This document shows, piece by piece, positions 236 through 36,327 of a stretch of 64,000 nt of DNA; position 1 is the stretch's first letter; every line of letters starts with the position of its first letter. This DNA comes from a virus. Both the position numbers and the translations under genes were made by a program. The notes under the pieces were generated by a model. It saw only the letters and a list, made by a program, of their open reading frames with translations, had not been told where the DNA came from and made no database searches. The DNA lies in the IMG/VR virus record IMGVR_UViG_3300027967_000093, one strand, 5' to 3'.

Positions 236-939
236 TCGCTAATCCCTTTCAAGGTTGTTGAGTTCGGGTGATTACACTTCTCGCAGTCAAACTCCACATC
301 TTTATTCAGTGAAGGCATGTCCTGCAAGAACTCTGACACCTTTTTAAACTGGTCGGTCGTCATCTGTTCGATGAAGTCCATAAGTTCTTCTTTCTTAACA
401 TCCCGTGTGTCGATACGTTCATCTTCAGTAAGGATGGCTGCAATTGATTGACCTAACATTTCAAAACCAAGTTCGGTTTCATTACCTTCTAAGTCCATAC
501 CAATAACTGTTGCGTATGTCGGGTACTTCATCTCCACACTAATACTCGGAGTCAATTCAATGATGTTAGAGACCTCCGGAATATCAACGTGAATCTCTGA
601 TAGTACGATGTCATTCTCGTTCTTGTGTCCGCACCCACTGCATGGGATAAGAATAGTTGCGACTTCACCTACTGACTTCGAACGTACCTGAGTGAATAGG
701 AACTCGATATCAAAGGTACTAAATTCTTTAATGTTGATATCTTCGGTGATACATGCCTGTAGGGTATCTACAATCGCACCCAGTGCTGCCTTTTGGTCAC
801 CTGTTTCAAACGCAATCATCAACACCTTTTCTTCTTTCACCAAGTACGGACGGTAGGTGACTGTTTCACCTGTCGAAGGTACTTTGGTACTATAACTCGG
901 TGCTGAATTTAACTTAGGTAATGCCATGATATTCTCCAA
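223..939 (-). CDS. gp26-like baseplate hub assembly protein / tail assembly chaperone
   Basis: MALPKL..P.Y...VPSTGETVTYRPYLVKEEKVL N-terminus, RSKSVGE motif, two CxxC motifs, C-terminal L.G..DF. Confidence 0.85.
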   Translation of the reverse strand: MENIMALPKLNSAPSYSTKVPSTGETVTYRPYLVKEEKVLMIAFETGDQKAALGAIVDTLQACITEDINIKEFSTFDIEFLFTQVRSKSVGEVATILIPCSGCGHKNENDIVLSEIHVDIPEVSNIIELTPSISVEMKYPTYATVIGMDLEGNETELGFEMLGQSIAAILTEDERIDTRDVKKEELMDFIEQMTTDQFKKVSEFLQDMPSLNKDVEFDCEKCNHPNSTTLKGISDFLS

Positions 940-942
940 TAA

Positions 943-1680
943 TTAACTTAATAAATTTCCAAGTAATCCTGCACCCGTTCCAAGAATAGAACGAGCGGTG
1001 GATTCATTTTGGTTTGTAAACTTCCCAACTTCACTTTCCCAATCGGTGAATGATAATTGTACTGTCAACTCCATCAAACCTTCTTGTGCATTACCCAACG
1101 CTTGGTCATTCAATGTGGTCGGATAACACTCTTGTAATCTACAAGTAAAGGTTTTCTGTTTGTCGATTTGTCCACCGAAGTCTATCTCACCTTGAGATAA
1201 ATCCACCGGCCCCAAATCTGGGAGTCTGTTCTTAATAAAACTCGGAACTTTGTCCAAGAATTTTAGTTGTTTCTTATATACCCCAAATCTAATTCCACGT
1301 TCTACTGTGGAGATTGTTACAGGATATGTATACTCATCGAAATAACCGACTTCTTTGGTGACAGGGTTATGCGCCTCTGCTTGCCATGCTTCGAAGTACT
1401 GACGAACTATGTGGTTATTTGCGACTAAGAAAGTGAGAGATATGTCAGTAGTCGCAAAACCACTCGCAATCTTACGCATGGTCGTTCCTATCTGATAGTC
1501 CTGAGACATTATCTGTCGGCCAGGAAGTGCAGCAGTAGTACACATTAGGTTCAACTCATTTGCATCTACCTGATATGTTCTTAACTGGGGCAACTGAATC
1601 ATAAACTGATTCGCCATTGCCATACCACCTGACTGCGATAACTGAGACTTTAAGTCTTCTATTCCGAACCCTGCACTCAT
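943..1680 (-). CDS. Tail tube-like protein (gp19/gp54 family, tube initiator)
   Basis: GG.A..N.F, LMC..A.LPGR, YFEAWQ and L.ECYP...LTV.LSF..W motifs of the tube-protein fold. Confidence 0.75.
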   Translation of the reverse strand: MSAGFGIEDLKSQLSQSGGMAMANQFMIQLPQLRTYQVDANELNLMCTTAALPGRQIMSQDYQIGTTMRKIASGFATTDISLTFLVANNHIVRQYFEAWQAEAHNPVTKEVGYFDEYTYPVTISTVERGIRFGVYKKQLKFLDKVPSFIKNRLPDLGPVDLSQGEIDFGGQIDKQKTFTCRLQECYPTTLNDQALGNAQEGLMELTVQLSFTDWESEVGKFTNQNESTARSILGTGAGLLGNLLS

Positions 1681-2871: not shown

Positions 2872-3377
2872 TTCTTAGGTTTCCTGTAGGGTTTCATTTT
2901 CTTCAAGGGTTTAAATTGTTTTTTACCGAGTGGCTTCGGAAGTATTCCTAGACTTCTTAATTCTTTTTCTGTCCATATCTCGAAGTGCCATCCTCGGTCT
3001 GCAACATACTTCTCGGTTGCATTCCATTTACTCATGTTCTTTATATAGGTCATTGTTTCGGTAAGTACTTGTCGTCTCGGTCTACCAACACCGGACTTAG
3101 GTTTTACCGTTTCTTTGTGTGGTTTGACCTCAATCAATACAGTACGGCCGTCTTTGTACTTGACCATAAAATCCATAAAGTATCTGTGTGGTCTTTTGTC
3201 TGTCTCGCATATATAAGGTATAACAATCTCTTCACTAACCCAACCAACAACATTAGGGTTGTCGTCTAAGTATATACAGACCGACCTTTCCCACCCCGAA
3301 CGATATACAACATTCTTGGGGTCACCAAGATACTTGGATTCATTCCTAACTTTGTATTTTCCTTTGTAAGTTTTCAT
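2868..3377 (-). CDS. gp4: Head completion nuclease (T4 gp4-like, TnsA-type fold)
   Basis: MKTYKGKY..N..KY.GDP..VVYRSGWE, HRYFMDF and LIEVKP motifs. The true start is the ATG at 3377; the track's extension to 3599 overlaps gp48 antisense. Confidence 0.9.
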   Translation of the reverse strand: MKTYKGKYKVRNESKYLGDPKNVVYRSGWERSVCIYLDDNPNVVGWVSEEIVIPYICETDKRPHRYFMDFMVKYKDGRTVLIEVKPHKETVKPKSGVGRPRRQVLTETMTYIKNMSKWNATEKYVADRGWHFEIWTEKELRSLGILPKPLGKKQFKPLKKMKPYRKPKK

Positions 3378-23709: not shown

Positions 23710-26613
23710 ATGGCACGTCCTTTTACAAAACTAAGTGACTCGTTCAAGATTTTACGGGATAATGTTAATACTATCTCGTATAATGTTGGTGACCCTGACG
23801 ACCTAAACACCTATGGTGATAGTGATGTCGTTCAGGCAATCAATGAAATCGAACGTGTCTTCGATGCCTCTGCGGGTGAAATCCTATATCCTACTGGTGC
23901 AGCAGGTGAAACTCAAACTCGACTCCTTATTAGTACCGCACAATCAAGTGGTACAGATATCCAGTTTAATGTTGGTGCAAACTTCAACATTGATGCAGTA
24001 GGTGACATCAACTTAGATGCCGGTGGCGCGAACATCAACTTCCTTGATGATTCTTCTAACCGTATTGCATTTACTTTGGGTGCGACTAACACTGTTGGTG
24101 TGACTGGTGTACTTGACCTTGATGTCTCTTCTAATCTCGACATCGATGTGTCTGGTAATACGACTCTTACCTCCACCGGCACAACTACTATCGAAACAAC
24201 TACATTCACTGTAGACGCGTCCGGAGATGTAATCCTTGACGCAGACGGTGGAAATGTAACATTCAAAGATGGTGGAACTACAGACTATAACTTTGCAACT
24301 GATGGTACAGTTTCTCGTACCGGAGACTTGACATTTGACATCTCGGGTGATATAATCCTTGATGCAGATGGCGGGAACATTACATACAAAGATGGTGGAA
24401 CTGATCGTATAGCATATATGATGGGTACAACCAACACTGCGGCTGTAACTGGTAACCTTACCTATGACGTTTCGGGTGATATTGTACTCGATGCGGGAAC
24501 CAATAACGTAGACCTAAAAGGTGCAGGAACTACTCGTTTCGCATACGGACTTGGTACGTCTAATACCCTAGACGTTACAGGTAATCTTACACAAACTGTC
24601 TCAGGTAACTTCTCAGACAGTGCTGATGGTACTTATCATATAGGTGCGACTGGTCTTGTAGATGTTATTACTTCTGGTAACTTCGACACTACCTCGAACC
24701 AACAAACACATTCTACCACTGGTAACTTCACTATCGATGCCGGTGGTGATATTATACTAGATGCGGATGGTGCGGATATAAGTTTCAAGGATGACGGAAC
24801 TACTCGTTTCCAATATAACCTTGGTACAACTAACACTATCACCACAACTGGTGCTATCGACCACAATGTATCAGGTGGATATGACATCGATGTTAACGGT
24901 GCGTTTGAAGTTGATGCGAATGGTTCCATCACTATGGATGCGACTGGTGACTTTGATATCAAAGGTTCTGGTACAACTCGTTTTGCATATGGTCTTGGTA
25001 CATCAAACACATTAGACGTTACAGGTAATCTCACTCAAACAGTATCAGGTAACTATTCTGATTCTGCTAATGGCACATACCACATTGGTGCGACTGGTGC
25101 TACCGACATTCAAACGTCTGGTACATTCCAAACTAATACTGGTGCACAGACTCATACTGTTACTGGTGCATACACCGTTGACGCATCTACTGATATTGTC
25201 CTTGATGCAGATGGTGCAAATGTCACTCTGAAAGATGGGGGTGCGACTCGATTCGACTTCCAAATGGGTGCGAACCAAGAACTAGACATTCCTACTGGCA
25301 ACTTCACTTTAGATGTTGCGGGTAATATTGTACTAGACGCAGACGGTGCGAACATCGACTTTCAAGACGGTGGTGTTGCACGATTCGAATATGGTCTAGG
25401 TACAACTAACACTTTAGATATCTCAGGTAACTTAACTCAGTCTGTATCGGGTGACCACACTGACAGTGCAGATGGTATTCGTACTATCAATGCAACTGAC
25501 GGTCTTACTTTCGAAGCAACACACGGCCCACTAACGGTTACTGCAAGTGGTAATGGTACTGTGTCGGTAGGTGGTAACTACCTAGTAGATGCAGAAGGTG
25601 ATATTACACTTGATGCAAACGGTGCAGATATTGTATTTAAAGATGCGGGTGTTACAGAACTAACATTCAACTTAGACTCTGACCAAACTATTGAAGCACG
25701 AAATAGTCTGATTCTTGATGCCGACCAAGATATTACTCTTGAAGCGAACGGTAAAGATATCAACTTCAACGATGGTACTCAGAACAACTTTGTATTCAAC
25801 CTTGGTACTAACCAAGAAGTTGATGTTGTAGGTAATCTAACTGTAGATGTTGCGGGTGATATTACACTTGATGCAGGTGGTACTCAGGTAAACCTTGCAG
25901 ACGGAACCGCAAACCGTATTGTTCACAACCTTGGTACAAACCAAGAGATTGACTATACTGGTGACCTTACCCAAGACATTGGTGGTGATTTAATCATTGA
26001 TGTTGATGGTGGAGATGTTTACCTCAAAGATGCAGGTACTCAGTTCGGTCGTCTGAAGAATACTAGTAACCAACTAGACATTTACTCTGGCTCTACTCTT
26101 GCACTTGAGATGACTGCGAATACTATCGAAGTTCATAACCGTGCATTGTTCTTAGACTCTGCACTAGATACTGTTGCATCAAATGTTGCAGGTTCTATTA
26201 ATGAAATTCATACAGAACTCGATTCTGCATCTGGTGAGATAGAGTCTGTCAAAGATACTATCGAACAGATGTTGAAAACATTTGATTCGGGTGGAACTAG
26301 TGCAAACATTTCTGCGACTGGTATCTCTACTCTCAATACTCTCGATAAGACTTTTGTTGGTGGTATCAACGAGATTGATACTCGACTAGATTCTGCGGTT
26401 GATGAAATTCAAGTCGTAAAAAGTAGAGTCACAAGTAATGCCACAGACATTCTAAACTTGAGTAATCGAGTTGGTCAGTTGAATACACTTGACAGTTCTG
26501 CGCCAGGCAACTTCTTCGAAGGTATAAATAACGATAGTATAGTAAACGCGATAAACGAATTAGCAAGAAGAACTGTCCTAATCTATGATGAGAACGGTAC
26601 TCTTCTGAACTAA
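23710..26613 (+). CDS. Fibre-like virion protein with about 12 DI.LDA[DGN]G..[IV].FKD repeats
   Basis: Repeated beta motifs and four [AGS]INE[IL] motifs. Ends IYDENGTLLN. Confidence 0.75.
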   Translation: MARPFTKLSDSFKILRDNVNTISYNVGDPDDLNTYGDSDVVQAINEIERVFDASAGEILYPTGAAGETQTRLLISTAQSSGTDIQFNVGANFNIDAVGDINLDAGGANINFLDDSSNRIAFTLGATNTVGVTGVLDLDVSSNLDIDVSGNTTLTSTGTTTIETTTFTVDASGDVILDADGGNVTFKDGGTTDYNFATDGTVSRTGDLTFDISGDIILDADGGNITYKDGGTDRIAYMMGTTNTAAVTGNLTYDVSGDIVLDAGTNNVDLKGAGTTRFAYGLGTSNTLDVTGNLTQTVSGNFSDSADGTYHIGATGLVDVITSGNFDTTSNQQTHSTTGNFTIDAGGDIILDADGADISFKDDGTTRFQYNLGTTNTITTTGAIDHNVSGGYDIDVNGAFEVDANGSITMDATGDFDIKGSGTTRFAYGLGTSNTLDVTGNLTQTVSGNYSDSANGTYHIGATGATDIQTSGTFQTNTGAQTHTVTGAYTVDASTDIVLDADGANVTLKDGGATRFDFQMGANQELDIPTGNFTLDVAGNIVLDADGANIDFQDGGVARFEYGLGTTNTLDISGNLTQSVSGDHTDSADGIRTINATDGLTFEATHGPLTVTASGNGTVSVGGNYLVDAEGDITLDANGADIVFKDAGVTELTFNLDSDQTIEARNSLILDADQDITLEANGKDINFNDGTQNNFVFNLGTNQEVDVVGNLTVDVAGDITLDAGGTQVNLADGTANRIVHNLGTNQEIDYTGDLTQDIGGDLIIDVDGGDVYLKDAGTQFGRLKNTSNQLDIYSGSTLALEMTANTIEVHNRALFLDSALDTVASNVAGSINEIHTELDSASGEIESVKDTIEQMLKTFDSGGTSANISATGISTLNTLDKTFVGGINEIDTRLDSAVDEIQVVKSRVTSNATDILNLSNRVGQLNTLDSSAPGNFFEGINNDSIVNAINELARRTVLIYDENGTLLN

Positions 26614-26627
26614 CAGTAGGAAGTAGA

Positions 26628-29495
26628 ATGTCAGATAATAAGGCATTACCGTTAAAGTTAAAAGACAGTGATGGTAATCTCCAACAGATAACTGCATCGG
26701 AAAAGAACTATGTTGCTTACCTTGCGGGTCTCCAAACCGCACAAGCAGATAGTTCTGATGTAGGACTTCTTACACTCTCATCGGGTGGGAATCGTCTCAT
26801 CGGTTCTCTAACCGATACCTATTACCCTGAACCTGTTGGGACTCACCCATACAACCAAACATCTGTTGTTACCACAACAACAAACATGTATCAGATAAAC
26901 GGTACTGTACTTGAAAATGACAGTGACTGGAGAAAACCAGTAGGTCATTATGATGGTAATGTTTATGAGATGTCAGAGACTGACTTAAATACTTTCGTTG
27001 ATGACCTCAATGGACGTATTGCATTATCAGACTATCCTGGCTCACTGAAATTATCTTCTACACGTCCAAGTGCAGACTATGATATTCTTATCCCGAGTGT
27101 ACTGACCGACCAACGTGCAGATTCTTCTGGTTCTCCTTTTACTGTAAATGATTATAGTATCTGGCGCAGAACTAGTATGACCGCCCCCACATCTATTCGG
27201 GATGACCTGAATGGTGTGAGTAGTATTGTTGGTATCAAAAGAAGTTTCGGTGACAGTGGTGACTACCAAGGTCTGACTAAACTTACTGATCGTCAAGTTC
27301 AAGTAACTATTGGTCAACGTGCAAAGACAAGACGTGCGATTGATAACAATGTCGGTTCATACGAATTAAGAACATCTTCTCAGGGTGCACCTGTTGTTGG
27401 TACTTGGAAGAATGTTGGTGCAGCAGTAAATACTATTCGTCTTGTTGACGAACAGAACTATACGCGCACCCGCGTAAGTGCGTACACGCGTGACCGCAAC
27501 TCTGCATATACTCGTGTCAGTTCAAGAACAATCAATAGTTCCTTTGCGGGTAACTATATTGGTAATTATACAAGAGACTTTGCCGGTAACTATACAAGGG
27601 GATTCCTTGGTAATTATGTTGGTGATTTCACTGGTAACTATACTCGTGACTTTGCAGGTAATTATACAAGAGATGTACAAACTAACTTTGCGGGGGATTA
27701 CGTAGGTAATTACTCTCGTGGATTTATCGGAAACTATTCAAGAGATTTTGCAGGTGAATATAGTCGCAACTTCGTAGGTAACTTCCTTGGGGAATATACG
27801 AGAACCTCTACAAGAGGAAGACCATCTGCATTTAGTAGAGTAAGAAGTTCTAACTATTCACGAAACTTTGCGGGTAATTACACTCGTGGATTTATTGGAG
27901 ACTATGCGGGTAACTTCGTAGGGGAATATTTAAGAACCTCTACTCGCACTCGTACTTCTAATTATGCGCGTACCTCAACACGAATCCGAGAATCCGCGTA
28001 TGTTAGAATACGCACATCGATATATGCGGCCGACTATACTCGTACTCGTAATTCTAATTATACTAGAACCAGTACTCGTACTCGTAATTCTAACTATACT
28101 AGAACATCTACTAGAACAAATGCGGCAGATTTCATCGGAAATTATATTCGATTAAGAACCTCTTCGTATACAAGAAATAGTACTAGAACACGTACATCTT
28201 CATATCTAAGAGGATTTACTGGAACTACTGATTATATTGGGAACTACTCTCGTACCGACTTTACCCGAATTAGAATAACTAATATCGAAGGACAAAACTT
28301 CTATTATACTGGTAACTATATCGGCCCAAGTCAGTCTTTCACTGGGAACTTCATAGGTACATCACAATCTGTTCGTTACTCTATGGCCGCAGTTGAGGTT
28401 GGTGTGTATGATGATGAACGTTGGGTAAAAACCAATTACACTTCTTCCGGATATACAACATTCAGTGTATATTGGGGTAATGTTGAAGTGTATAATTCTG
28501 GAGTTCAACCATTATATACTGACAGTACGGTGGCTGTTGCTGGTGGTTATGTTTACAGTAGACAAGGAGACCCCATCACTGGTGGCGGTGGTTCTGGGTT
28601 TAGTTACTCAATATACAATGTAAATCGTAATATTGCTGGTAGTTATACGGGTAATTATATTACCACCCGACAGTCTGCGTTCAGTAGAGGTTTCACCGGA
28701 GACTTTACTGGTAATTATACTCGTAATGTTACCGATGACTATACCAGAACAAGAACTTCTAGTTATGCCGGAGACTTTGTAGGCGACTACACACGTGACT
28801 TCGCAGGTAATTACGTAGGTGATTATACGCGTGACTTCGCAGGTAATTACATTGGCGACTACACTAGAGACTTTAGTGGTGATTATGCACGTGATTTCAT
28901 AGGTAACTACACTGGTGATTATACAAGAGATTTCGCAGGAAATTATGTTGGAGACTATACCCGAGTATCTACTCGAACATCTGCACGTACTAGATTCTCT
29001 GCATATGCTCGTACCCGTGTATCAAACTATTCACGTGACTTCATAGGAAACTACTCAAGAACTTTTGCAGGAGATTATATTGGTGATTATGCCCGTATTT
29101 CTACACGTACTCGAGTAAGTTCATATAGTCGTCTGAGAAATTCTGCATACACTAGAACAAGAACTTCTACATACACTGACAATTACGTTGGAGATTATGT
29201 TGGTAACTTCATCGGTGAATATACGCGTACCAGAAACTCTGCGTTTACTCGTAATGACACCTTAGATTCTACTCGCACTAGAGTATCAACTTATACCAGA
29301 GGTAGAAACTCAGCCTATACCCGAGACTCTACTCGTTCACGTTCATCCAGTTATGTCGGAGAATATACAGGGAACTACTCTAGGGCGTTTGTCGGAAACT
29401 ACTCAAGGTCTTTTGTAGGTGATTATATAGGTCAGACAATTGGTAACACAACTTACGCAGTAGAAACGTATACCTTGTATGTAAGAACTGCATAA
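26628..29495 (+). CDS. Giant tetrapeptide-repeat fibre protein A (955 aa): N-domain, arm 1, tip domain, complementary arm 2
   Basis: About 276-aa N-domain paralogous to that of 29540. Built from xYxR/xFxG/xRxS/xSxR tetrads. Ends ETYTLYVRTA. Confidence 0.85.
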   Translation: MSDNKALPLKLKDSDGNLQQITASEKNYVAYLAGLQTAQADSSDVGLLTLSSGGNRLIGSLTDTYYPEPVGTHPYNQTSVVTTTTNMYQINGTVLENDSDWRKPVGHYDGNVYEMSETDLNTFVDDLNGRIALSDYPGSLKLSSTRPSADYDILIPSVLTDQRADSSGSPFTVNDYSIWRRTSMTAPTSIRDDLNGVSSIVGIKRSFGDSGDYQGLTKLTDRQVQVTIGQRAKTRRAIDNNVGSYELRTSSQGAPVVGTWKNVGAAVNTIRLVDEQNYTRTRVSAYTRDRNSAYTRVSSRTINSSFAGNYIGNYTRDFAGNYTRGFLGNYVGDFTGNYTRDFAGNYTRDVQTNFAGDYVGNYSRGFIGNYSRDFAGEYSRNFVGNFLGEYTRTSTRGRPSAFSRVRSSNYSRNFAGNYTRGFIGDYAGNFVGEYLRTSTRTRTSNYARTSTRIRESAYVRIRTSIYAADYTRTRNSNYTRTSTRTRNSNYTRTSTRTNAADFIGNYIRLRTSSYTRNSTRTRTSSYLRGFTGTTDYIGNYSRTDFTRIRITNIEGQNFYYTGNYIGPSQSFTGNFIGTSQSVRYSMAAVEVGVYDDERWVKTNYTSSGYTTFSVYWGNVEVYNSGVQPLYTDSTVAVAGGYVYSRQGDPITGGGGSGFSYSIYNVNRNIAGSYTGNYITTRQSAFSRGFTGDFTGNYTRNVTDDYTRTRTSSYAGDFVGDYTRDFAGNYVGDYTRDFAGNYIGDYTRDFSGDYARDFIGNYTGDYTRDFAGNYVGDYTRVSTRTSARTRFSAYARTRVSNYSRDFIGNYSRTFAGDYIGDYARISTRTRVSSYSRLRNSAYTRTRTSTYTDNYVGDYVGNFIGEYTRTRNSAFTRNDTLDSTRTRVSTYTRGRNSAYTRDSTRSRSSSYVGEYTGNYSRAFVGNYSRSFVGDYIGQTIGNTTYAVETYTLYVRTA
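27456..28223 (+). repeat. Fibre A arm 1: 64 in-phase tetrapeptide (12-nt) units
   Basis: NYTR TRVS AYTR DRNS ... SYLR GFTG parses without phase breaks. Confidence 0.9.
28665..29432 (+). repeat. Fibre A arm 2: 64 tetrapeptide units complementary (antiparallel) to arm 1
   Basis: TRQS AFSR GFTG ... SFVG DYIG. Confidence 0.9.
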
Positions 29496-29539: not shown

Positions 29540-32500
29540 GTGGCGGCATCTGATATACCATTAAAAAGTTATGGAGTTAACGGAGACCTTCAGGAGGTAA
29601 CCCCTTCTGAAGAGAACTACCTTGCATATCGTGCAGGACTTCATATATCGACAAGTCAGGGAACTGATGAGGGCGACCTGACTCTTACTAATAGTGGCCA
29701 TTCTGTCGGTCAATTCGTTGATACCTATTTTAATCAGGCGGATGGAACACACCCCGCAACTTCTATTACTTCTGGTTCAACAACCACTACATTATATCAA
29801 CGTGACGGAACTGCACCTTACAATGGTCTTGACTATCTAAGACCTATTGGATATAATACAAGTGGTGATGTGGGTTTCCACGAATTCACCGATTCTGATA
29901 TGGATACCTTATGTACTCGTCTGAATGCACGTATTGCAGTATCAGACTATCCTGGCACATACTACCTTGGTACCTCTGCACCTAGTGCGGATTATAGTGT
30001 GGACATTGCGGATGTCTATACCGACACCGTAGGTAACGGAACATCTACAACATATAACATCTATCAAAGAGACACAATGACTGCCCCCACGACTGTTCGT
30101 CCGATAGGGATTAAGTACAGTGGTGGTTCTTATGATGGATTGATTGAGTTAAATGATGCCCAGATAAACTATACACTTGGACAACACTGTAGAACTTTAC
30201 GTGGTAAAGATGGTGCGATTGGTTCGTACCAACTAAGAAGTTCTGCACAGGGTGTTCCGGTATCGCCAGGCACATGGGCTTCGAAGGGTACTGCGACCAA
30301 TACCAAAAGGACTACGTCTGAGGTTGCATACACCAGAACGCGTTCATCTTCTTATACAAGAGACCGTTCTTCTACATATGCAAGAACCCGAAATTCAATA
30401 TACACCAGAAATAGTACCGCAGTTTTTGCAGGTGACTTTGTTGGCAATTACGTTGGTGATTATACAAGAGATTTTGCGGGTAACTATGCAAGAGACTTTG
30501 CAGGTAATTATGCAGGGGAATACGTAGGAAATTATTCACGTACAAGAACATCTGCATTTACTCGTAATAGTACAGACACCTTTACTCGCGATTTTACCGG
30601 AAACTATGCACGTACTCGTGTGTCGACCTATACTCGAGATAGTCTGAATATCTTCACTGGTAACTTTATCGGGAACTACACTCGCACCAGAATAAGTGCA
30701 TATTCTCGTAACAGTACTCGAAATAGAATAAGTGCATATTCACGTACAAGAACATCAACATACACCACAGTGTTTTCCGGCAACTATATCGGAAACTTTA
30801 TTGGTGATTATACACGTACCCGAGTTTCCAACTATGCAGGAACATATACAAGAACACGTAACTCAGCCTATACTCGCACACGCGTGTCTGCATATACACG
30901 CGACCGTGTAACTGATTTCACCGGAGATTATATCGGTGATTATGCAAGAACTCGTGTATCTGCGTACAGCCGAACCAGTACCCGTACCAGAACTTCTGCA
31001 TACAGTAGAACTAGATCCTCCACATATACACGTGACCGTACATCAACCTTCACGGGTGACTTCGTTGGTAATTACTCACGGAACCGAAATTCTGCATATA
31101 CCAGAACTCGTGTATCAAATTATGCGGGGGACTTCACTGGCAATTATTCGCGTACTCGTGTATCCGCATATACTAGAGACAGAGTAACAAACTTTACCGG
31201 AGACTTCATTGGTAACTATACCCGTGGTCGCATCTCTACATATACACGTGACAGATTACAGACTTTTACTGGTGACTTTGTTGGAAACTATTCGCGCACC
31301 TTTATTGGCGATTATTCACGTACCTTTATCGGAAACTATTCTCGTGCGTTCGCTGGTGACTATGTCGGAAACTATGCACGGACTCGCGTAACAGATTCAA
31401 CTAGAACTCGAAACTCAAACTATACACGCGCATCAACAAGAAACCGTTCCTCTGCATATTCGCGTGACCGTGTTACTGATTTTGCAGGTAACTTTGTTGG
31501 GAACTACACTCGTGATTTTGTCGGTAACTTTGTCGGTAATTATTCTCGTGGATTTGCAGGTGAATATACTGGTAACTATGCAAGGTCATTCTTAGGCAAT
31601 TACACCGGAAACTACACAAGAGGATTCCTTGGTAATTATGTCGGTGATTTCGTAGGCAATTATGCTCGTGGGTATGGCGGTAACTTTACTGGAAACTATG
31701 CTCGTGGATTTGTGGGTAACTATGGAAGAACACGAAACTCAGCATATACCCGAGATAGTACTCGTACATCTACCCGTGTTCTGAACTATCAAAGAATTTC
31801 GACTCGAACTTCGACTCGTGTATTTGACTACACTAGAATCAGTACAAGGACTTCGACTCTTACATTGTCATATAGTCGTGTAGTTTCATACAGTGGTGAC
31901 TTTACGGGTAACTATACCCGCACCCGCACGGCAGTAGGTGACTATACGCGAACCCGCACCGCAACTGGTACCTATACTCGTACTCGTACTGCGACCGGAG
32001 ATTATACTCGTGCACGTGCCGAAGGTGTAACATATACCGGAAACTACACCAGAACATTGTACTATGCAGGTGACTTTACTGGTAATTACACTCGTACCTT
32101 GTACTATGTTGGTAACTTTACGCCTACTGCCGACTACACTCGAGTTAGCACTGCAATTGCGTACTATACAGGGAACTACACACGTACCGGATACTATGTC
32201 AGATACAGTATTTCTGGTGGGACGTATGTCGGAAACTATACTCGTGTTTTGTTATTCGCAAGAAGTCCACCGTCTGATCCATATGCGATTGAATATTACA
32301 CAAAAACATCCGCATATACTCGTACTCGTTCTGGAACAACAAGTTACATAGGTAACTATACTCGTACACTTGATTACACGAGAGTTCGAACCCCGACATT
32401 ATACTACTTAGGTAACTATGTTGGTGCATCTGATGGTACCGCAGAATATACTCGTTCACGCGCAGGTGGTACAGTCGAAGGCCAAACGATTTACTATGTC

Positions 32501-34387
32501 GGTAACTATTCACGTGTCTTGCCGGCCTCCACTCGTACTAGTACTGCGACCGGAGATTATACTAGGGTTTCTACTCGTACTAGTACTGCGACCGGAACTT
32601 ATACTCGTGCACGTGCGTCTACGTTATATTACACAGGCAACTATACTCGTACATTATATTACGTAGGCGACTACACTCGCACATTGTATTATGTTGGTAA
32701 CTATACTCGTACACTGTATTACGTAGGTGACTATACGCGCAACTCTACTCGTGTTTCTACGGCAACAGTGTATTATACCCGTACCGGATACTATGCAGGT
32801 GACTTTACTGGTAACTATACTAGATTAGGTTATTATGCAGGAGAATTTGTCGGTGATTATACACGTACCGGATACTATGCAGGAAACTTCATAGGTGATT
32901 ATTCTCGTGCGTTCGCTGGTAATTACTCAAGAACTCGTAACTCGGCATACGCACGTATATCAACACGTACTCGTTATTCTGCATATGCTCGTACTCGTAT
33001 TACTGACTCTACAAGGACTAGAGTATCTGCTTACGCTGCGGACTACACTCGCAGCCGTTCTTCTGCATATACTAGAGTATCAAGTAGAACAAGATTTTCT
33101 GCGTACACTCGTGACAGATTACAGACCTTTACTGGTAACTTTACACGTGACCGAGTGACAAACTATGCGGGTAACTTTATTGGAAACTATGCACGTACCT
33201 TTGTAGGGAACTATACCGGAGATTACACTCGAGATTTCGCAGGAAATTATGTCGGGGATTTCATTGGAGAATACGCACGTACATCAACACGTACTCGTTT
33301 CTCTGCGTACACCCGTGACCGTATTTCTACTTACTCAAGGAATCGTGTGTCTGCATACGCTAGAACTCGTATAACCGATTATATTGCAAACTATGTGGGT
33401 AACTACTCAAGAACATTTACTGGTAACTATACTCGTAATAGTACCGCAGTTTTTGCAGGTAACTTTGTAGGTAATTACTCACGTGACTTTGCAGGTGAAT
33501 ACACTAGAGTATCAACCAGAACTTCTACTCGTGACTTTGTGGGTGACTATACTCGTGACTTCACTGGTAACTATGCAAGAACTCGTATAACCGATTATAT
33601 TGCAAACTATGTTGGTAATTATTCTCGCAACTTTGCAGGAAACTATACCAGAGACTTTGGTGGAAATTATGTGGGTGATTATACCCGAGACTTTGCAGGT
33701 GAATACACTCGCAACAGTACAGTAGATTTCGCAGGTAATTTCGTAGGTAATTACAGTAGAAACTTTGCAGGTAACTACGCCAGAGACTTTGCCGGTAATT
33801 ATGTTGGCGATTACACCCGAGACTTTGCAGGTGAATATTCAAGAGACCGACAAACCGACTTTATTGGAGAGTACACTGGTAACTTCGCAAGAGACTTTGC
33901 GGGTAACTATACCAGAACTTTCGTAGGTGATTTTACTGGCAACTATACTCGTGGATTCCTTGGTGAATATACGCGTGACTCTCTGCAAGACTTTACTGGT
34001 AACTTTGTTGGGAACTACTCACGTGACTTTGCAGGAGAATATACAAGGGTTCGTGTATCCAACTATGTTGGGGACTTCACTGGTAACTACAGCCGAGACT
34101 TCATTGGTGAGTATACACGAACGTCTACTCGTACTTCTACTAGAACTCGTGTATCAACATTTAGTAGAACTAGAACTTCTGCGTATTCTGCGGACTATAC
34201 ACGTAATCGCGTAACTGATTTCACCGGAGACTTCTCAGGAAATTATTCTCGCAACTTTGCAGGTAATTATTCTAGGTCGTTTATCGGCAATTATTCTCGT
34301 GACTTTGTAGGGAACTATGTTGGTACCACACTAGACTCGGGAACTGAGGTTATTGAAACCTATACACTTTATGTAAGAACTGCATAA
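29540..34387 (+). CDS. Giant tetrapeptide-repeat fibre protein B (1615 aa), paralogue of A
   Basis: Shares PLK...G.LQ..T.SE.NY.AY.AGL, RIA.SDYPG and GSY.LR.S.QG.P..GTW with A. Same C-terminal ETYTLYVRTA. GTG start with an AAGAGAG RBS. Confidence 0.85.
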   Translation: MAASDIPLKSYGVNGDLQEVTPSEENYLAYRAGLHISTSQGTDEGDLTLTNSGHSVGQFVDTYFNQADGTHPATSITSGSTTTTLYQRDGTAPYNGLDYLRPIGYNTSGDVGFHEFTDSDMDTLCTRLNARIAVSDYPGTYYLGTSAPSADYSVDIADVYTDTVGNGTSTTYNIYQRDTMTAPTTVRPIGIKYSGGSYDGLIELNDAQINYTLGQHCRTLRGKDGAIGSYQLRSSAQGVPVSPGTWASKGTATNTKRTTSEVAYTRTRSSSYTRDRSSTYARTRNSIYTRNSTAVFAGDFVGNYVGDYTRDFAGNYARDFAGNYAGEYVGNYSRTRTSAFTRNSTDTFTRDFTGNYARTRVSTYTRDSLNIFTGNFIGNYTRTRISAYSRNSTRNRISAYSRTRTSTYTTVFSGNYIGNFIGDYTRTRVSNYAGTYTRTRNSAYTRTRVSAYTRDRVTDFTGDYIGDYARTRVSAYSRTSTRTRTSAYSRTRSSTYTRDRTSTFTGDFVGNYSRNRNSAYTRTRVSNYAGDFTGNYSRTRVSAYTRDRVTNFTGDFIGNYTRGRISTYTRDRLQTFTGDFVGNYSRTFIGDYSRTFIGNYSRAFAGDYVGNYARTRVTDSTRTRNSNYTRASTRNRSSAYSRDRVTDFAGNFVGNYTRDFVGNFVGNYSRGFAGEYTGNYARSFLGNYTGNYTRGFLGNYVGDFVGNYARGYGGNFTGNYARGFVGNYGRTRNSAYTRDSTRTSTRVLNYQRISTRTSTRVFDYTRISTRTSTLTLSYSRVVSYSGDFTGNYTRTRTAVGDYTRTRTATGTYTRTRTATGDYTRARAEGVTYTGNYTRTLYYAGDFTGNYTRTLYYVGNFTPTADYTRVSTAIAYYTGNYTRTGYYVRYSISGGTYVGNYTRVLLFARSPPSDPYAIEYYTKTSAYTRTRSGTTSYIGNYTRTLDYTRVRTPTLYYLGNYVGASDGTAEYTRSRAGGTVEGQTIYYVGNYSRVLPASTRTSTATGDYTRVSTRTSTATGTYTRARASTLYYTGNYTRTLYYVGDYTRTLYYVGNYTRTLYYVGDYTRNSTRVSTATVYYTRTGYYAGDFTGNYTRLGYYAGEFVGDYTRTGYYAGNFIGDYSRAFAGNYSRTRNSAYARISTRTRYSAYARTRITDSTRTRVSAYAADYTRSRSSAYTRVSSRTRFSAYTRDRLQTFTGNFTRDRVTNYAGNFIGNYARTFVGNYTGDYTRDFAGNYVGDFIGEYARTSTRTRFSAYTRDRISTYSRNRVSAYARTRITDYIANYVGNYSRTFTGNYTRNSTAVFAGNFVGNYSRDFAGEYTRVSTRTSTRDFVGDYTRDFTGNYARTRITDYIANYVGNYSRNFAGNYTRDFGGNYVGDYTRDFAGEYTRNSTVDFAGNFVGNYSRNFAGNYARDFAGNYVGDYTRDFAGEYSRDRQTDFIGEYTGNFARDFAGNYTRTFVGDFTGNYTRGFLGEYTRDSLQDFTGNFVGNYSRDFAGEYTRVRVSNYVGDFTGNYSRDFIGEYTRTSTRTSTRTRVSTFSRTRTSAYSADYTRNRVTDFTGDFSGNYSRNFAGNYSRSFIGNYSRDFVGNYVGTTLDSGTEVIETYTLYVRTA
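30326..31777 (+). repeat. Fibre B arm 1: 121 in-phase tetrapeptide units
   Basis: AYTR TRSS SYTR DRSS ... DSTR TSTR. Confidence 0.9.
32873..34324 (+). repeat. Fibre B arm 2: 121 tetrapeptide units complementary (antiparallel) to arm 1
   Basis: YYAG NFIG DYSR AFAG ... DFVG NYVG. Confidence 0.9.
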
Positions 34388-34452: not shown

Positions 34453-34917
34453 ATGAGTTTTAAACGATGGATGGATAATGCATTTTGGGAAAATCCTGAG
34501 AAATCCAAAGTCAATTGTATCCTTGAGATGGAAGATGATATTGGTCGTCAAACCAAACAAGTGATGTTATTGAGTCGTCTTAATAAAGACGGTAGTGAAA
34601 ATGAAATGTTCGCTGAAGTTGTGGGTGCACTAGGTGAAGAATCTATTGACCGAAATACCGAAGACCGTAAAGTTCGGAAAGCTGCAGAAATCGAAGAACG
34701 TAAACAACGTGACACCGAACATGCACGTGCACGTAAACTCGAAGAACTTTTTAACTACAAACTAGAAGTCTTTGAGACAGAAGAGATTAAAAATTCCAAG
34801 AACCGGAAGTTAAAGGCAAAACTTAGACGCGCAAAATCTAAAGTTGAAGTTAACCTATATGCAATGATGTTGTTACAAGAAGCACTTGAGGCGAATGAGA
34901 ATGTCGGAGAAGAGTAG
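34453..34917 (+). CDS. Hypothetical protein (charged helical C-terminus)
   Basis: 154-aa ORF with an RBS. No recognised motif. Confidence 0.75.
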   Translation: MSFKRWMDNAFWENPEKSKVNCILEMEDDIGRQTKQVMLLSRLNKDGSENEMFAEVVGALGEESIDRNTEDRKVRKAAEIEERKQRDTEHARARKLEELFNYKLEVFETEEIKNSKNRKLKAKLRRAKSKVEVNLYAMMLLQEALEANENVGEE

Positions 34918-35635
34918 AGGTTATGTACTTGTTGCATCTAACAAGATAAACTTCTATCGATATGCAATTAACCTTGCAGAGTCGATTCTAGATTATTATG
35001 AAGACGCAAAGATTACATTGTTTTGTGAACCATGGATGTTCGAGGAACAACACCGAGAACTATTTGATAATGTCGAATGGTGCAGTAGTCACTATCGTGC
35101 TAAACTCGAAGGTATGGCTCGTTCTCCTTATGACCTGACTATGTACCTCGATGTTGATATGGAATGTGAACACGAAGACATTGCGATATGTTTCGATGAA
35201 CTGGAGAGACGCGAAGAGGATATTCTATTCTCTGAACTCACAGATGACCGCGAGTATGTCTATGCAGAACGTCAGTTTGATACACCTGAAGGTAAGACTA
35301 AATTTACCTTGTGTGGGGGTGTCGCTCTATACGACATGACTAAACCTATCGTAAGAGAGTTTATGTCTGACTGGGAGATGCTCACTAAAGACCAAATGGA
35401 TGGTAATTGGTGGCCTGACGGATACATCGATAGTCTCAAGTCATGGGATCAGTTTAGTCTCTGGTGGTTGACTGAAAGAGAAGATAAATACAAAGACCTC
35501 AAGTACGGTATACTTGAAGACGATTTGCGTTGGAACTATTATAACGCATTCAACTGGGCAATCACCAAACCGACTGGCCCTGTTGTTATTCGACACTACT
35601 CTTGTGGTTTAGATAAAGACGGATATATCATATGA
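34901..35635 (+). CDS. GT-A fold glycosyltransferase / nucleotide-diphospho-sugar transferase
   Basis: SPYDLTMYLDVD (DxD), GGVALY, WDQFSLW, RWNY and VIRHY motifs. The likely start is ATG 34901. Confidence 0.8.
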   Translation: MSEKSRGYVLVASNKINFYRYAINLAESILDYYEDAKITLFCEPWMFEEQHRELFDNVEWCSSHYRAKLEGMARSPYDLTMYLDVDMECEHEDIAICFDELERREEDILFSELTDDREYVYAERQFDTPEGKTKFTLCGGVALYDMTKPIVREFMSDWEMLTKDQMDGNWWPDGYIDSLKSWDQFSLWWLTEREDKYKDLKYGILEDDLRWNYYNAFNWAITKPTGPVVIRHYSCGLDKDGYII

Positions 35636-36327
35636 GTTATATGCAGGACATCCCTGTTAAGAATAGGGACTTATTAAAAATATTGAATCGATATCGAGAC
35701 TTCTTGATGAAGGATGTCGATTCTTTCAAAGAGACATTTCACCTACAATGTCAAGAAGATGCAAGTAATAGACATTACTGGGCAGGTGACACTCACCTAC
35801 AAGAAATTCTTGACCAAGGTACTCGACACGAAGGGTTTCCGGATTCTATCTACGGGTACGAACTTGGAGTGCATAGAAAAGACCACGAGTTTTATGAACG
35901 TGGTGTGCATCCATCTATCCGCAAAGACAGGACTGCGGAACTTGCGTGGATGCAACAAGAGATTCTTGGATGGTTGGGAGTAAGACACAATGCACTTACC
36001 GCATTCTATCCACCTGGCGGTTATATCTCTTGGCACAATAATGCGAACGCCCCCGCATACAATCTAATATTCTCATGGTCAGAGACTGGAGACGGTCAAT
36101 TTAATTATGTTGACCCTACCACCAAAGAAGTCGTGGAGATGAAGGATAAACAAGGTTGGAACTGTAAAGCCGCATACTTTGGACATTATGAAGAACCCGA
36201 ACGACTATTCTACCACTCAGCAAAAACTGACTGTTGGAGAGTGACGGTATCATTCATTTTCGATACCTCGGAATTGTCCTCGGTTATCAGAGATGATTTA
36301 ATCGAAGATATAATGTCTGAAGAGTAA
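35632..36327 (+). CDS. 2OG-Fe(II) oxygenase-like (double-stranded beta-helix) protein, copy 1
   Basis: YPPGGYISWHNN ... FYHSA.TDCWRVTVSF, i.e. H-x-N...H...R. Confidence 0.65.
   Translation: MSYMQDIPVKNRDLLKILNRYRDFLMKDVDSFKETFHLQCQEDASNRHYWAGDTHLQEILDQGTRHEGFPDSIYGYELGVHRKDHEFYERGVHPSIRKDRTAELAWMQQEILGWLGVRHNALTAFYPPGGYISWHNNANAPAYNLIFSWSETGDGQFNYVDPTTKEVVEMKDKQGWNCKAAYFGHYEEPERLFYHSAKTDCWRVTVSFIFDTSELSSVIRDDLIEDIMSEE

Follow-up and report, generated by a model that had tools for sequence, protein, structure and literature searches.

The window considered here is the whole 64,000-nucleotide stretch of virus record IMGVR_UViG_3300027967_000093, and the element of interest within it is fibre B, a protein of 1615 amino acids (aa) encoded by an open reading frame (ORF) at 29540..34387 (+). 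The ORF begins with a GTG start codon, which is matched in relatives. Fibre B is the second gene of a paralogous pair whose first member, fibre A, occupies ORF 26628-29495; the pair belongs to the baseplate and fibre portion of a structural module of T4 type, with baseplate wedge genes upstream and neck and portal genes downstream. The portal protein of the window shares 72% identity with that of Phage C48C1 (Kyanoviridae, according to its record) and about 52% with the portals of Methylophilales, Pelagibacter and Synechococcus myophages. From these portal identities the window is judged to be an uncultured marine T4-like phage.

Fibre B comprises an N-terminal domain of about 260 aa, a repeat region spanning residues 263–1595 and a short conserved C-terminal end of the TYTLYVR type, which is common to 50 proteins. 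The N-terminal domain is 51% identical to the C48C1 protein WJE88074, and 34–49% identical to 18 metagenomic proteins (15 of the 18 at 42% or above). Searches of Pfam, NCBIfam and PDB sequences with fibre B, its N-terminal domain and the fork described below gave no match (none in PDB below E = 0.4), and PHROGs returned nothing for fibre B beyond two weak unnamed matches. The ESM Atlas contains the sequence without a model, its neighbours there being unnamed only, and literature searches by concept, phage name and sequence motif gave no description of this fibre family or of a branched tip.

The repeat region can be read in four-residue words. When residues 263–746 and 1112–1595 are each cut into 121 tetrads and the C-terminal set is reversed, facing words of this main stem follow a simple rule: xYxR words (aromatic-x-Arg) face their own kind, and aromatic-x-Gly words face R/S tetrads without an aromatic residue at position 2. 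The rule is obeyed by 102 of the 121 pairs (84%), as against 38 ± 5 with shuffled partners (maximum 60 in 100,000 shuffles), and all 65 non-aromatic tetrads lie opposite a Gly tetrad. Shifting the register, by whatever size, lowers the fit to 17–48%. Of the 103 polar tetrads of the main stem, 102 have R or S in second place, and the 968 residues of this stem contain no proline. A residue-pair matrix trained on fibre B alone also locates the corresponding diagonal in fibre A. A finer sub-code is seen in the long-range stems of fibre B, fibre A and database homologues (P0005-P0073), where the choice between Phe and Tyr in the second place of the Gly word strongly tracks the choice between Arg and Ser in the second place of the polar word opposite (mutual information z ~28) and also tracks position 4 of that polar word (z ~22); roughly, DFxG is found opposite TRxS and NYxG opposite xSTR. 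Word order within each arm may be part of the source of this correlation.

Beyond tetrad 121, a first-pass annotation made from the sequence alone had described a continued mirror pattern in a second, hexapeptide code, leading to a forked tip. Every motif it named is present at the position given, including the short units at 32444-32515 in fibre B and 28257-28325 in fibre A, and the mirror pattern itself is borne out. In this region (31778-32872, residues 747–1111 of the ORF) both 116-residue arms of a distal stem keep the diagonal of the main stem, i + j = 1858, up to residues 862 and 996. In the fold computed below, all 27 tetrad pairs of the distal stem obey the main-stem rule, and ten two-residue spacers stand at mirror positions, nine of these spacer pairs having Gly on one side and Leu or Phe on the other. 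All nine Y.R anchors on the N-terminal side (750..850) are mirrored on the same diagonal by all nine on the C-terminal side (1007..1107), and the series of their spacings—14, 14, 14, 10, 10, 10, 14, 14—runs in opposite directions on the two arms. The six-residue units are real, but they do not constitute a second code: each pair of hexads is a polar tetrad plus dipeptide facing a dipeptide plus YYxG tetrad, which is the tetrad code with a paired spacer.

The composition of the protein changes towards this tip. From main stem to hexad stem to fork, Tyr rises from 11.2 to 15.9 to 17.3% and Phe falls from 7.5 to 2.6 to 0.8%, while Thr and Leu increase and Asn/Asp decrease. The tip is thus Tyr-rich, as had been noticed at first reading, but Tyr replaces Phe and total aromatics stay at 18–19% throughout. 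The YYxG words would place an aromatic residue on both faces of a strand, and this distinct tip chemistry is compatible with a contact surface but no proof of one.

Pairing was also computed with a Nussinov/Zuker-type program which folds the string of tetrads, scores the main-stem rule only and permits stacked pairs, symmetric and asymmetric internal loops, hairpins and multiloops. In its strict form a polar word must carry R or S at position 2, a definition taken from the main-stem statistics. The optimum, in the fragment and in the whole-protein fold, has a multiloop after NFTP859/ASTR996, from which two hairpins emerge: hairpin 1, in which 869–908 pair with 919–958 (8/8 pairs) around loop 909–918, and hairpin 2, in which 969–976 pair with 985–992 around loop 977–984. 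This is exactly the layout of a long and a short hairpin that the first-pass annotation had proposed. The whole tip (747–1111) scores 55.35, compared with 32.2 ± 2.3 in unit shuffles (none of 60 reaches the observed value), and the fork alone (863–995) scores 15.05, compared with 9.29 ± 1.16 in unit-preserving shuffles (none of 500). A fold without multiloops, with a nearly equal score (15.25 vs 15.65), was rejected; it attains this score only with the closing stem left open. The repeat region, of about 1330 residues, contains only six prolines (862, 910, 911, 914, 952 and 995), and five of them fall at predicted strand breaks: Pro862 ends the N-terminal arm, Pro995 precedes the C-terminal arm and three lie in apex loop 1. 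The coordinates of these elements are collected in Table 1.

Table 1. Paired and unpaired elements of fibre B, as predicted from the pairing rule, and the related short unit of fibre A
Element	Position	Strand	Residues	Remarks
Fibre A short unit	28257..28325	+	544-566 (ORF 26628-29495)	EGQ-type turn
Main stem, N arm	30326..31777	+	263-746	121 tetrads; 102/121 pairs fit the code against 32873-34324 reversed
Distal hexad stem, N arm	31778..32125	+	747-862	Tetrads plus 10 dipeptide spacers; last residue Pro862
Hairpin 1, ascending arm	32132..32263	+	865-908	Diagonal 1827; 8/8 tetrad pairs; 28.6 bits
Apex loop 1	32264..32293	+	909-918	Pro-rich, 3 of 6 repeat-region prolines; resembles apex loops of L014/L025
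Hairpin 1, descending arm	32294..32425	+	919-962	
Linker between hairpins	32426..32443	+	963-968	Gly-containing; unpaired in the fold
Hairpin 2	32444..32515	+	969-992	Two tetrad pairs around an eight-residue loop with EGQ
Return linker	32516..32524	+		Three residues, the last Pro995, before the stem C arm
Distal hexad stem, C arm	32525..32872	+	996-1111	Diagonal 1858; mirror anchors
Main stem, C arm	32873..34324	+	1112-1595	121 tetrads

Several observations weigh against a chain folded back on itself and ending in this fork. When the polar tetrad is defined loosely, the stem extends to 859/996 and then forks in other registers (sums 1807 and 1937), which place both EGQ and the Pro-rich segment within strands; the strict definition, though grounded in main-stem statistics, was adopted after this result was known. 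There is a 20-residue periodicity in the fork, so alternative registers score well, and such pairings arise because polar-dipeptide-Gly decamers are self-complementary as well as because of this periodicity. The closing pair of hairpin 1 (DYTR/NYVG) violates the rule. Hairpin 2 consists of two tetrad pairs worth 6.0 bits, a value equalled by 7.6% of local 8×8 windows in fibre B, and two-tetrad hairpins appear in the fold of the globular N-terminal domain too. A first residue-pair matrix, derived from the tetrad stems of fibres A and B, left the tip diagonal 1858 level with competing diagonals. AlphaFold2 run without an alignment reached a predicted local distance difference test (pLDDT) score of 26.8 for residues 723–1135 and 33.1 for residues 851–1007, values at which the models are uninformative; the closest homologues of the tip (at best 38% identical in the protein database, 50% in IMG/VR) are too distant for an alignment. 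Finally, mirror complementarity would fit antiparallel pairing between the chains of an oligomer equally well.

Since the polar definition had been tightened afterwards, a test independent of that definition was sought in relatives of fibre B. Scanning IMG/VR with the tip yielded 73 loci, the best of which encode B-like proteins of 1100–2100 aa with the N-terminus and C-terminal end as in B. Their proximal stem is built of plain tetrads, with 330–370 residues per arm, no spacers and 86–90% of pairs consistent with the code. Their distal hairpin has 210–400 residues per arm, dipeptide spacers and 93–100% consistency along one diagonal; examples are 89 of 91 pairs with 20 spacers, 72 of 73 with 16 and 53 of 53 with 12. 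In nine relatives taken together, 115 of 115 spacers are symmetric. The distal hairpins of these nine relatives provided an independent residue-pair log-odds matrix (2722 pairs, fibre B left out), which superseded the earlier one. Applied to the tip of fibre B, this matrix gives diagonal 1858 100 bits and the runner-up 46. Within the fork it ranks diagonal 1827 (865–904 with 923–962) first, at 28.6 bits against 14.1 for the runner-up; unit shuffles give 16.6 ± 2.7 bits, and one in 500 reaches the observed value.

This result bears directly on the possibility that the fork forms in other registers, with the turn of hairpin 1 at 903–904 (sum 1807), the Pro-rich segment in a strand, and 945–962 paired with 975–992 so that EGQ also lies in a strand. 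Such a fork is the optimum under the loose definition and has six ungapped code pairs at sum 1807, compared with eight at 1827 and five at 1847; however, sum 1807 is not among the eight best fork diagonals of the relatives-trained matrix. It also requires SPPS, VEGQ and the like to be read as polar words, against the near-invariant R or S in the second place of polar main-stem words, and it puts three prolines into a strand and closes the hairpin with a loop of two residues. We therefore regard it as very improbable. As far as pairing is concerned, the hexad stem and hairpin 1 have good support, and the matrix from relatives chooses the same registers. By the code alone, hairpin 2 is judged to lie within chance, and its support is entirely comparative.

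That comparison concerns the apex of the distal hairpin. The apex loop pattern of the family is a loop of six to nine residues followed by T/N, a hydrophobic residue and YYxG. A loop of the hairpin 2 type lies at the exact centre of the hairpins of L004 (57 of 58 pairs) and L005 (53 of 53), and related forms are found at the apex in L009, L010 and L032. The loop of hairpin 1, with its Pro, Tyr and acidic residues, resembles instead the apex loops of L014 and L025, which have a single hairpin. Fibre B has both apex types, each flanked by self-complementary arms; among the B-like IMG/VR relatives with an examined apex, none showed the 106-residue hairpin 1.

The EGQ turn itself, which the first-pass annotation had proposed to look for in homologues, is not conserved there: in a hairpin context the tripeptide is found in fibres A and B only, and elsewhere it occurs in unrelated globular contexts. 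What is kept is the wider pattern of Q, then T/N, a hydrophobic residue and YYxG. The related short unit of fibre A is present with its EGQ turn, as had been noted, and sits between the stem and the globular tip domain of that protein. The short units of A and B match at 39 of 72 bases, which rules out a recent DNA copy as their origin. In the A-like homologues P0043, P0050 and P0070 there are 14-residue insertions (AQGTG...V-x-G-E/Q, then FVGNY), two to four per protein; in P0070 a 12-residue paired segment is bordered at one end by an insertion in the N-terminal arm and at the other by one in the C-terminal arm, an arrangement suggestive of small side hairpins on the stem.

Relatives also show how the paired units vary. 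The facing hexads number 3+3 (polar hexads opposite TLYYVG) and 2+2 (TLYYxG opposite polar hexads) in fibre B and 4+4 and 3+3 in L004, a compensated change in length, and C48C1 has the facing pair TLYYxG / T-x-T-A/N-x-G once. Motif counts on the two arms are positively correlated in 38 relatives (r = 0.56), although this measure is crude. A more trivial origin would be that the mirror pattern has no structural meaning and is a side effect of expanding repeats or of palindromes in the DNA. Direct DNA repeats do join the arms, among them one of 45 nucleotides that is 93% identical (31975-32019 and 32572-32616), so part of the similarity between them reflects duplication; units have thus been copied between arms with their orientation kept, though their partners differ. 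The 45-nucleotide repeat connects the third polar hexad of the N-terminal arm with the second polar hexad of the C-terminal arm. Against such an origin, no inverted DNA repeats were found in the tip region, and the mirror pattern therefore exists at the protein level only. Moreover, facing units are complementary rather than alike, shuffles of the same units never match the observed score, and the copy numbers of units change jointly on both arms between phages. A pattern without structural meaning is, on these grounds, hardly credible.

Branching is not confined to fibre B. In seven relatives (L004, L005, L008, L009, L010, L017 and L032) a globular segment of about 230 aa separates the distal hairpin from the main arm on its return; the combination of stem, distal hairpin and globular branch indicates that three-way junctions are common in the family. 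In these relatives the junctions carry far higher statistical weight than in B. The junction domain of about 230 aa has no Pfam match, and the globular domains of relatives match nothing in Pfam, PHROGs, NCBIfam or PDB. The layout of the seven resembles a knee between two half-fibres. WJE88074 of C48C1 (OQ984149, 10001-20044; 3347 aa) is the sole homologue in a named phage record and is annotated as hypothetical. In its fold, a stem closing the N- and C-terminal parts (258–341 with 3271–3326) surrounds an internal hairpin with 77 of 90 pairs (879–1260 with 1405–1786) and several further arms around globular inserts, giving a heavily branched layout. A second family (P0005-P0012, P0014-P0017, P0021-P0032 and others) also has the tetrad code and long mirror-paired arms around a globular tip; its N-terminal domain differs, starting MSYGL..GND, and it has a C-terminal globular domain of about 200 aa.

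The globular tips of relatives raise the question of what shape the paired segments of B adopt. The same pairings could be accommodated if residues 863–995 (133 residues) formed a compact small β-sheet domain capping the stem rather than a splayed fork, in a meander with the descending strand of hairpin 1, 969–976 and 985–992 side by side. The linker at 963–968 contains D-G, resembles the four-residue D-G turns that close hairpins in homologues and may itself be a turn; the polar tetrad 973–976 could then sit between the Gly-type tetrads 955–958 and 985–988; and a globular domain of about 100 aa is found at the same position in fibre A and many relatives. The 44-residue arms of hairpin 1, however, far exceed the strands of small domains and carry the stem code throughout, and there is no sequence similarity to the tip domain of fibre A. 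The structural models of the tip, all of low confidence, favour neither side. Both AlphaFold2 models have strands symmetric about 908–916, where the turn at the Pro-rich loop is predicted, and no hairpin at EGQ, but at this confidence neither feature carries much weight. A compact domain is in our view unlikely.

A different possibility is that the arms pair between chains, in an antiparallel dimer or a strand-swapped trimer, with the fork as the crossover region. Phage fibres are usually trimers. The needles of T4 gp37, for example, are trimeric (PMC6957217). A pure antiparallel dimer, however, needs a centre that is self-complementary on 1858, and the centre of B pairs locally on 1827 and 1961; local hairpins off diagonal 1858 favour self-pairing of the chain over a simple antiparallel dimer. 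Relatives, too, have long local hairpins and globular domains that are placed asymmetrically within the loop, and the N-terminal domain and C-terminal end are conserved together, as if the ends of the chain meet. Pairing between chains is thus improbable, and the branched tip provides the strongest sequence argument for self-pairing over pairing with a second chain.

Taken together, these observations lead us to favour, with moderate confidence, a fold-back fibre with coded antiparallel arms whose tip opens into a three-way junction of two hairpins. The chain would run out from its N-terminal base domain, turn and return antiparallel, with residue i beside residue 1858−i for 600 residues and the register set by side-chain complementarity of four-residue words. 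From residue 747 the words would be separated by two-residue spacers that are required at mirror positions, in a module conserved in relatives. At 862/996, each adjoining a proline, the stem is predicted to open into the junction; hairpin 1, with 44-residue arms, would be capped by its Pro-rich loop, and the short hairpin 2 by a Gly-containing turn. Hairpin 2 may be the ancestral apex of the family, and hairpin 1 a 106-residue self-complementary insertion beside it. The tip would then have no globular domain, and would expose two loops and ribbons rich in Tyr, Thr and Arg; it probably contacts the host surface. The forked-tip interpretation of the first-pass annotation is on the whole partly supported, its fork in three dimensions and its role in adhesion standing as hypotheses.

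We infer that the pairing is an antiparallel β-strand contact; an uninterrupted period of 2/4 and the lack of Pro over 1200 residues fit such a structure. A β-strand rises by about 3.3 Å per residue. At this value the main stem would measure at most about 160 nm and the hexad stem 38 nm, while the hairpins would reach no more than 15 nm (hairpin 1) and 3 nm (hairpin 2).

A broader proposal, which we hold more tentatively and at somewhat less than even chances, is that this is a true pairing code. Three classes of word, together with paired spacers, would specify β-ribbon stems, hairpins and multi-way junctions that evolve by compensated insertions and deletions as RNA does, and the tip of B would be a receptor-binding fork with two prongs and no globular domain, in which a new self-complementary hairpin has been inserted beside the ancestral apex. 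If the pairing is physical, the register, length and branching of such a fibre would all be spelled out in a code that can be read. This would explain how register is kept in fibres on the 100-nm scale, and would show by what means phages lengthen, shorten or branch their fibres, namely matched changes in two arms. The parts that contact the host would be encoded midway along the gene, a point of importance for annotating receptor-binding proteins in the abundant uncultured marine T4-like phages. Designers of long or branched β-ribbons would likewise be provided with a natural set of rules.

The neighbours of the fibre pair are less readily described. Directly after fibre B, 34453-34917 encodes a highly charged, probably helical protein of 154 aa with 69% identity to the product of the gene after the C48C1 fibre gene and no family match; it could be an assembly factor. 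It is followed by two genes (34886-36327; 249 and 231 aa) with no Pfam, PHROG or NCBIfam match, and glycosyltransferase or oxygenase readings of them are unsupported. Upstream of fibre A, 23710-26613 encodes a 967-aa protein with gp5/VgrG-like β-helix repeats, which matches PHROG baseplate hub and assembly families and, weakly, DUF2345; its end segment has weak similarity to a fibrinogen coiled coil.

Among known systems, the streptococcal antigen I/II adhesin has a long fold-back stalk in which N-terminal repeats pair over their full length with C-terminal repeats and which bears the binding part distally; its stalk is an α-helix packed with a polyproline helix and is not known to be branched. 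Fibre B is like it in being, on our reading, one chain folded back with repeat regions paired lengthwise, and unlike it in having arms with β-strand-like alternation and a class-complementary code. The direct repeats of the adenovirus triple β-spiral, the pentapeptide repeat and the gp5-type β-helix have periods of 15, 5 or 8, whereas B has a period of 4 (and 6), a mirror correspondence and no Pfam match.

Of the objects already described, the nearest is the long tail-fibre needle of T4 gp37 (PDB 2XGF, D10-D11), whose gene likewise lies among the baseplate and fibre genes of a T4-like phage. Its domain D10 is built from residues flanking D11 (811–881 and 1010–1026), contact with the receptor is made by residues midway along the segment, and His motifs bind seven iron ions (PMC6957217). 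Its chain runs out to a distal tip and back, as the chain of B would do if mirror complementarity reflects reversal. The gp37 needle is of about 130 residues without a reported word-by-word code, in contrast to the 600-residue arms and tip branch of B; nor does B have HxH, any His after residue 216 (or any in its repeats), or detectable similarity in PDB and Pfam searches to 2XGF or to the gp37/gp12 collar domains.

The tetrad-repeat family of WJE88074 shares with B the N-terminal domain, the C-terminal end, the tetrad code and a distal module in which dipeptide spacers are paired and TLYYxG lies opposite T-x-T-A/N-x-G; many of its members have three-way junctions. These relatives branch into a hairpin and a globular domain or carry an apex domain, whereas the fork of B would consist of two bare hairpins. 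Beyond proteins there is a formal analogy with RNA stem-loops: both have antiparallel complementary words, compensated insertions, hairpins and multiloops, and a dynamic-programming fold of the RNA kind recovers the layout of B. In B, however, the molecule is a protein, its letters are four-residue words in three classes, and their pairing is presumably a packing of side chains between strands.

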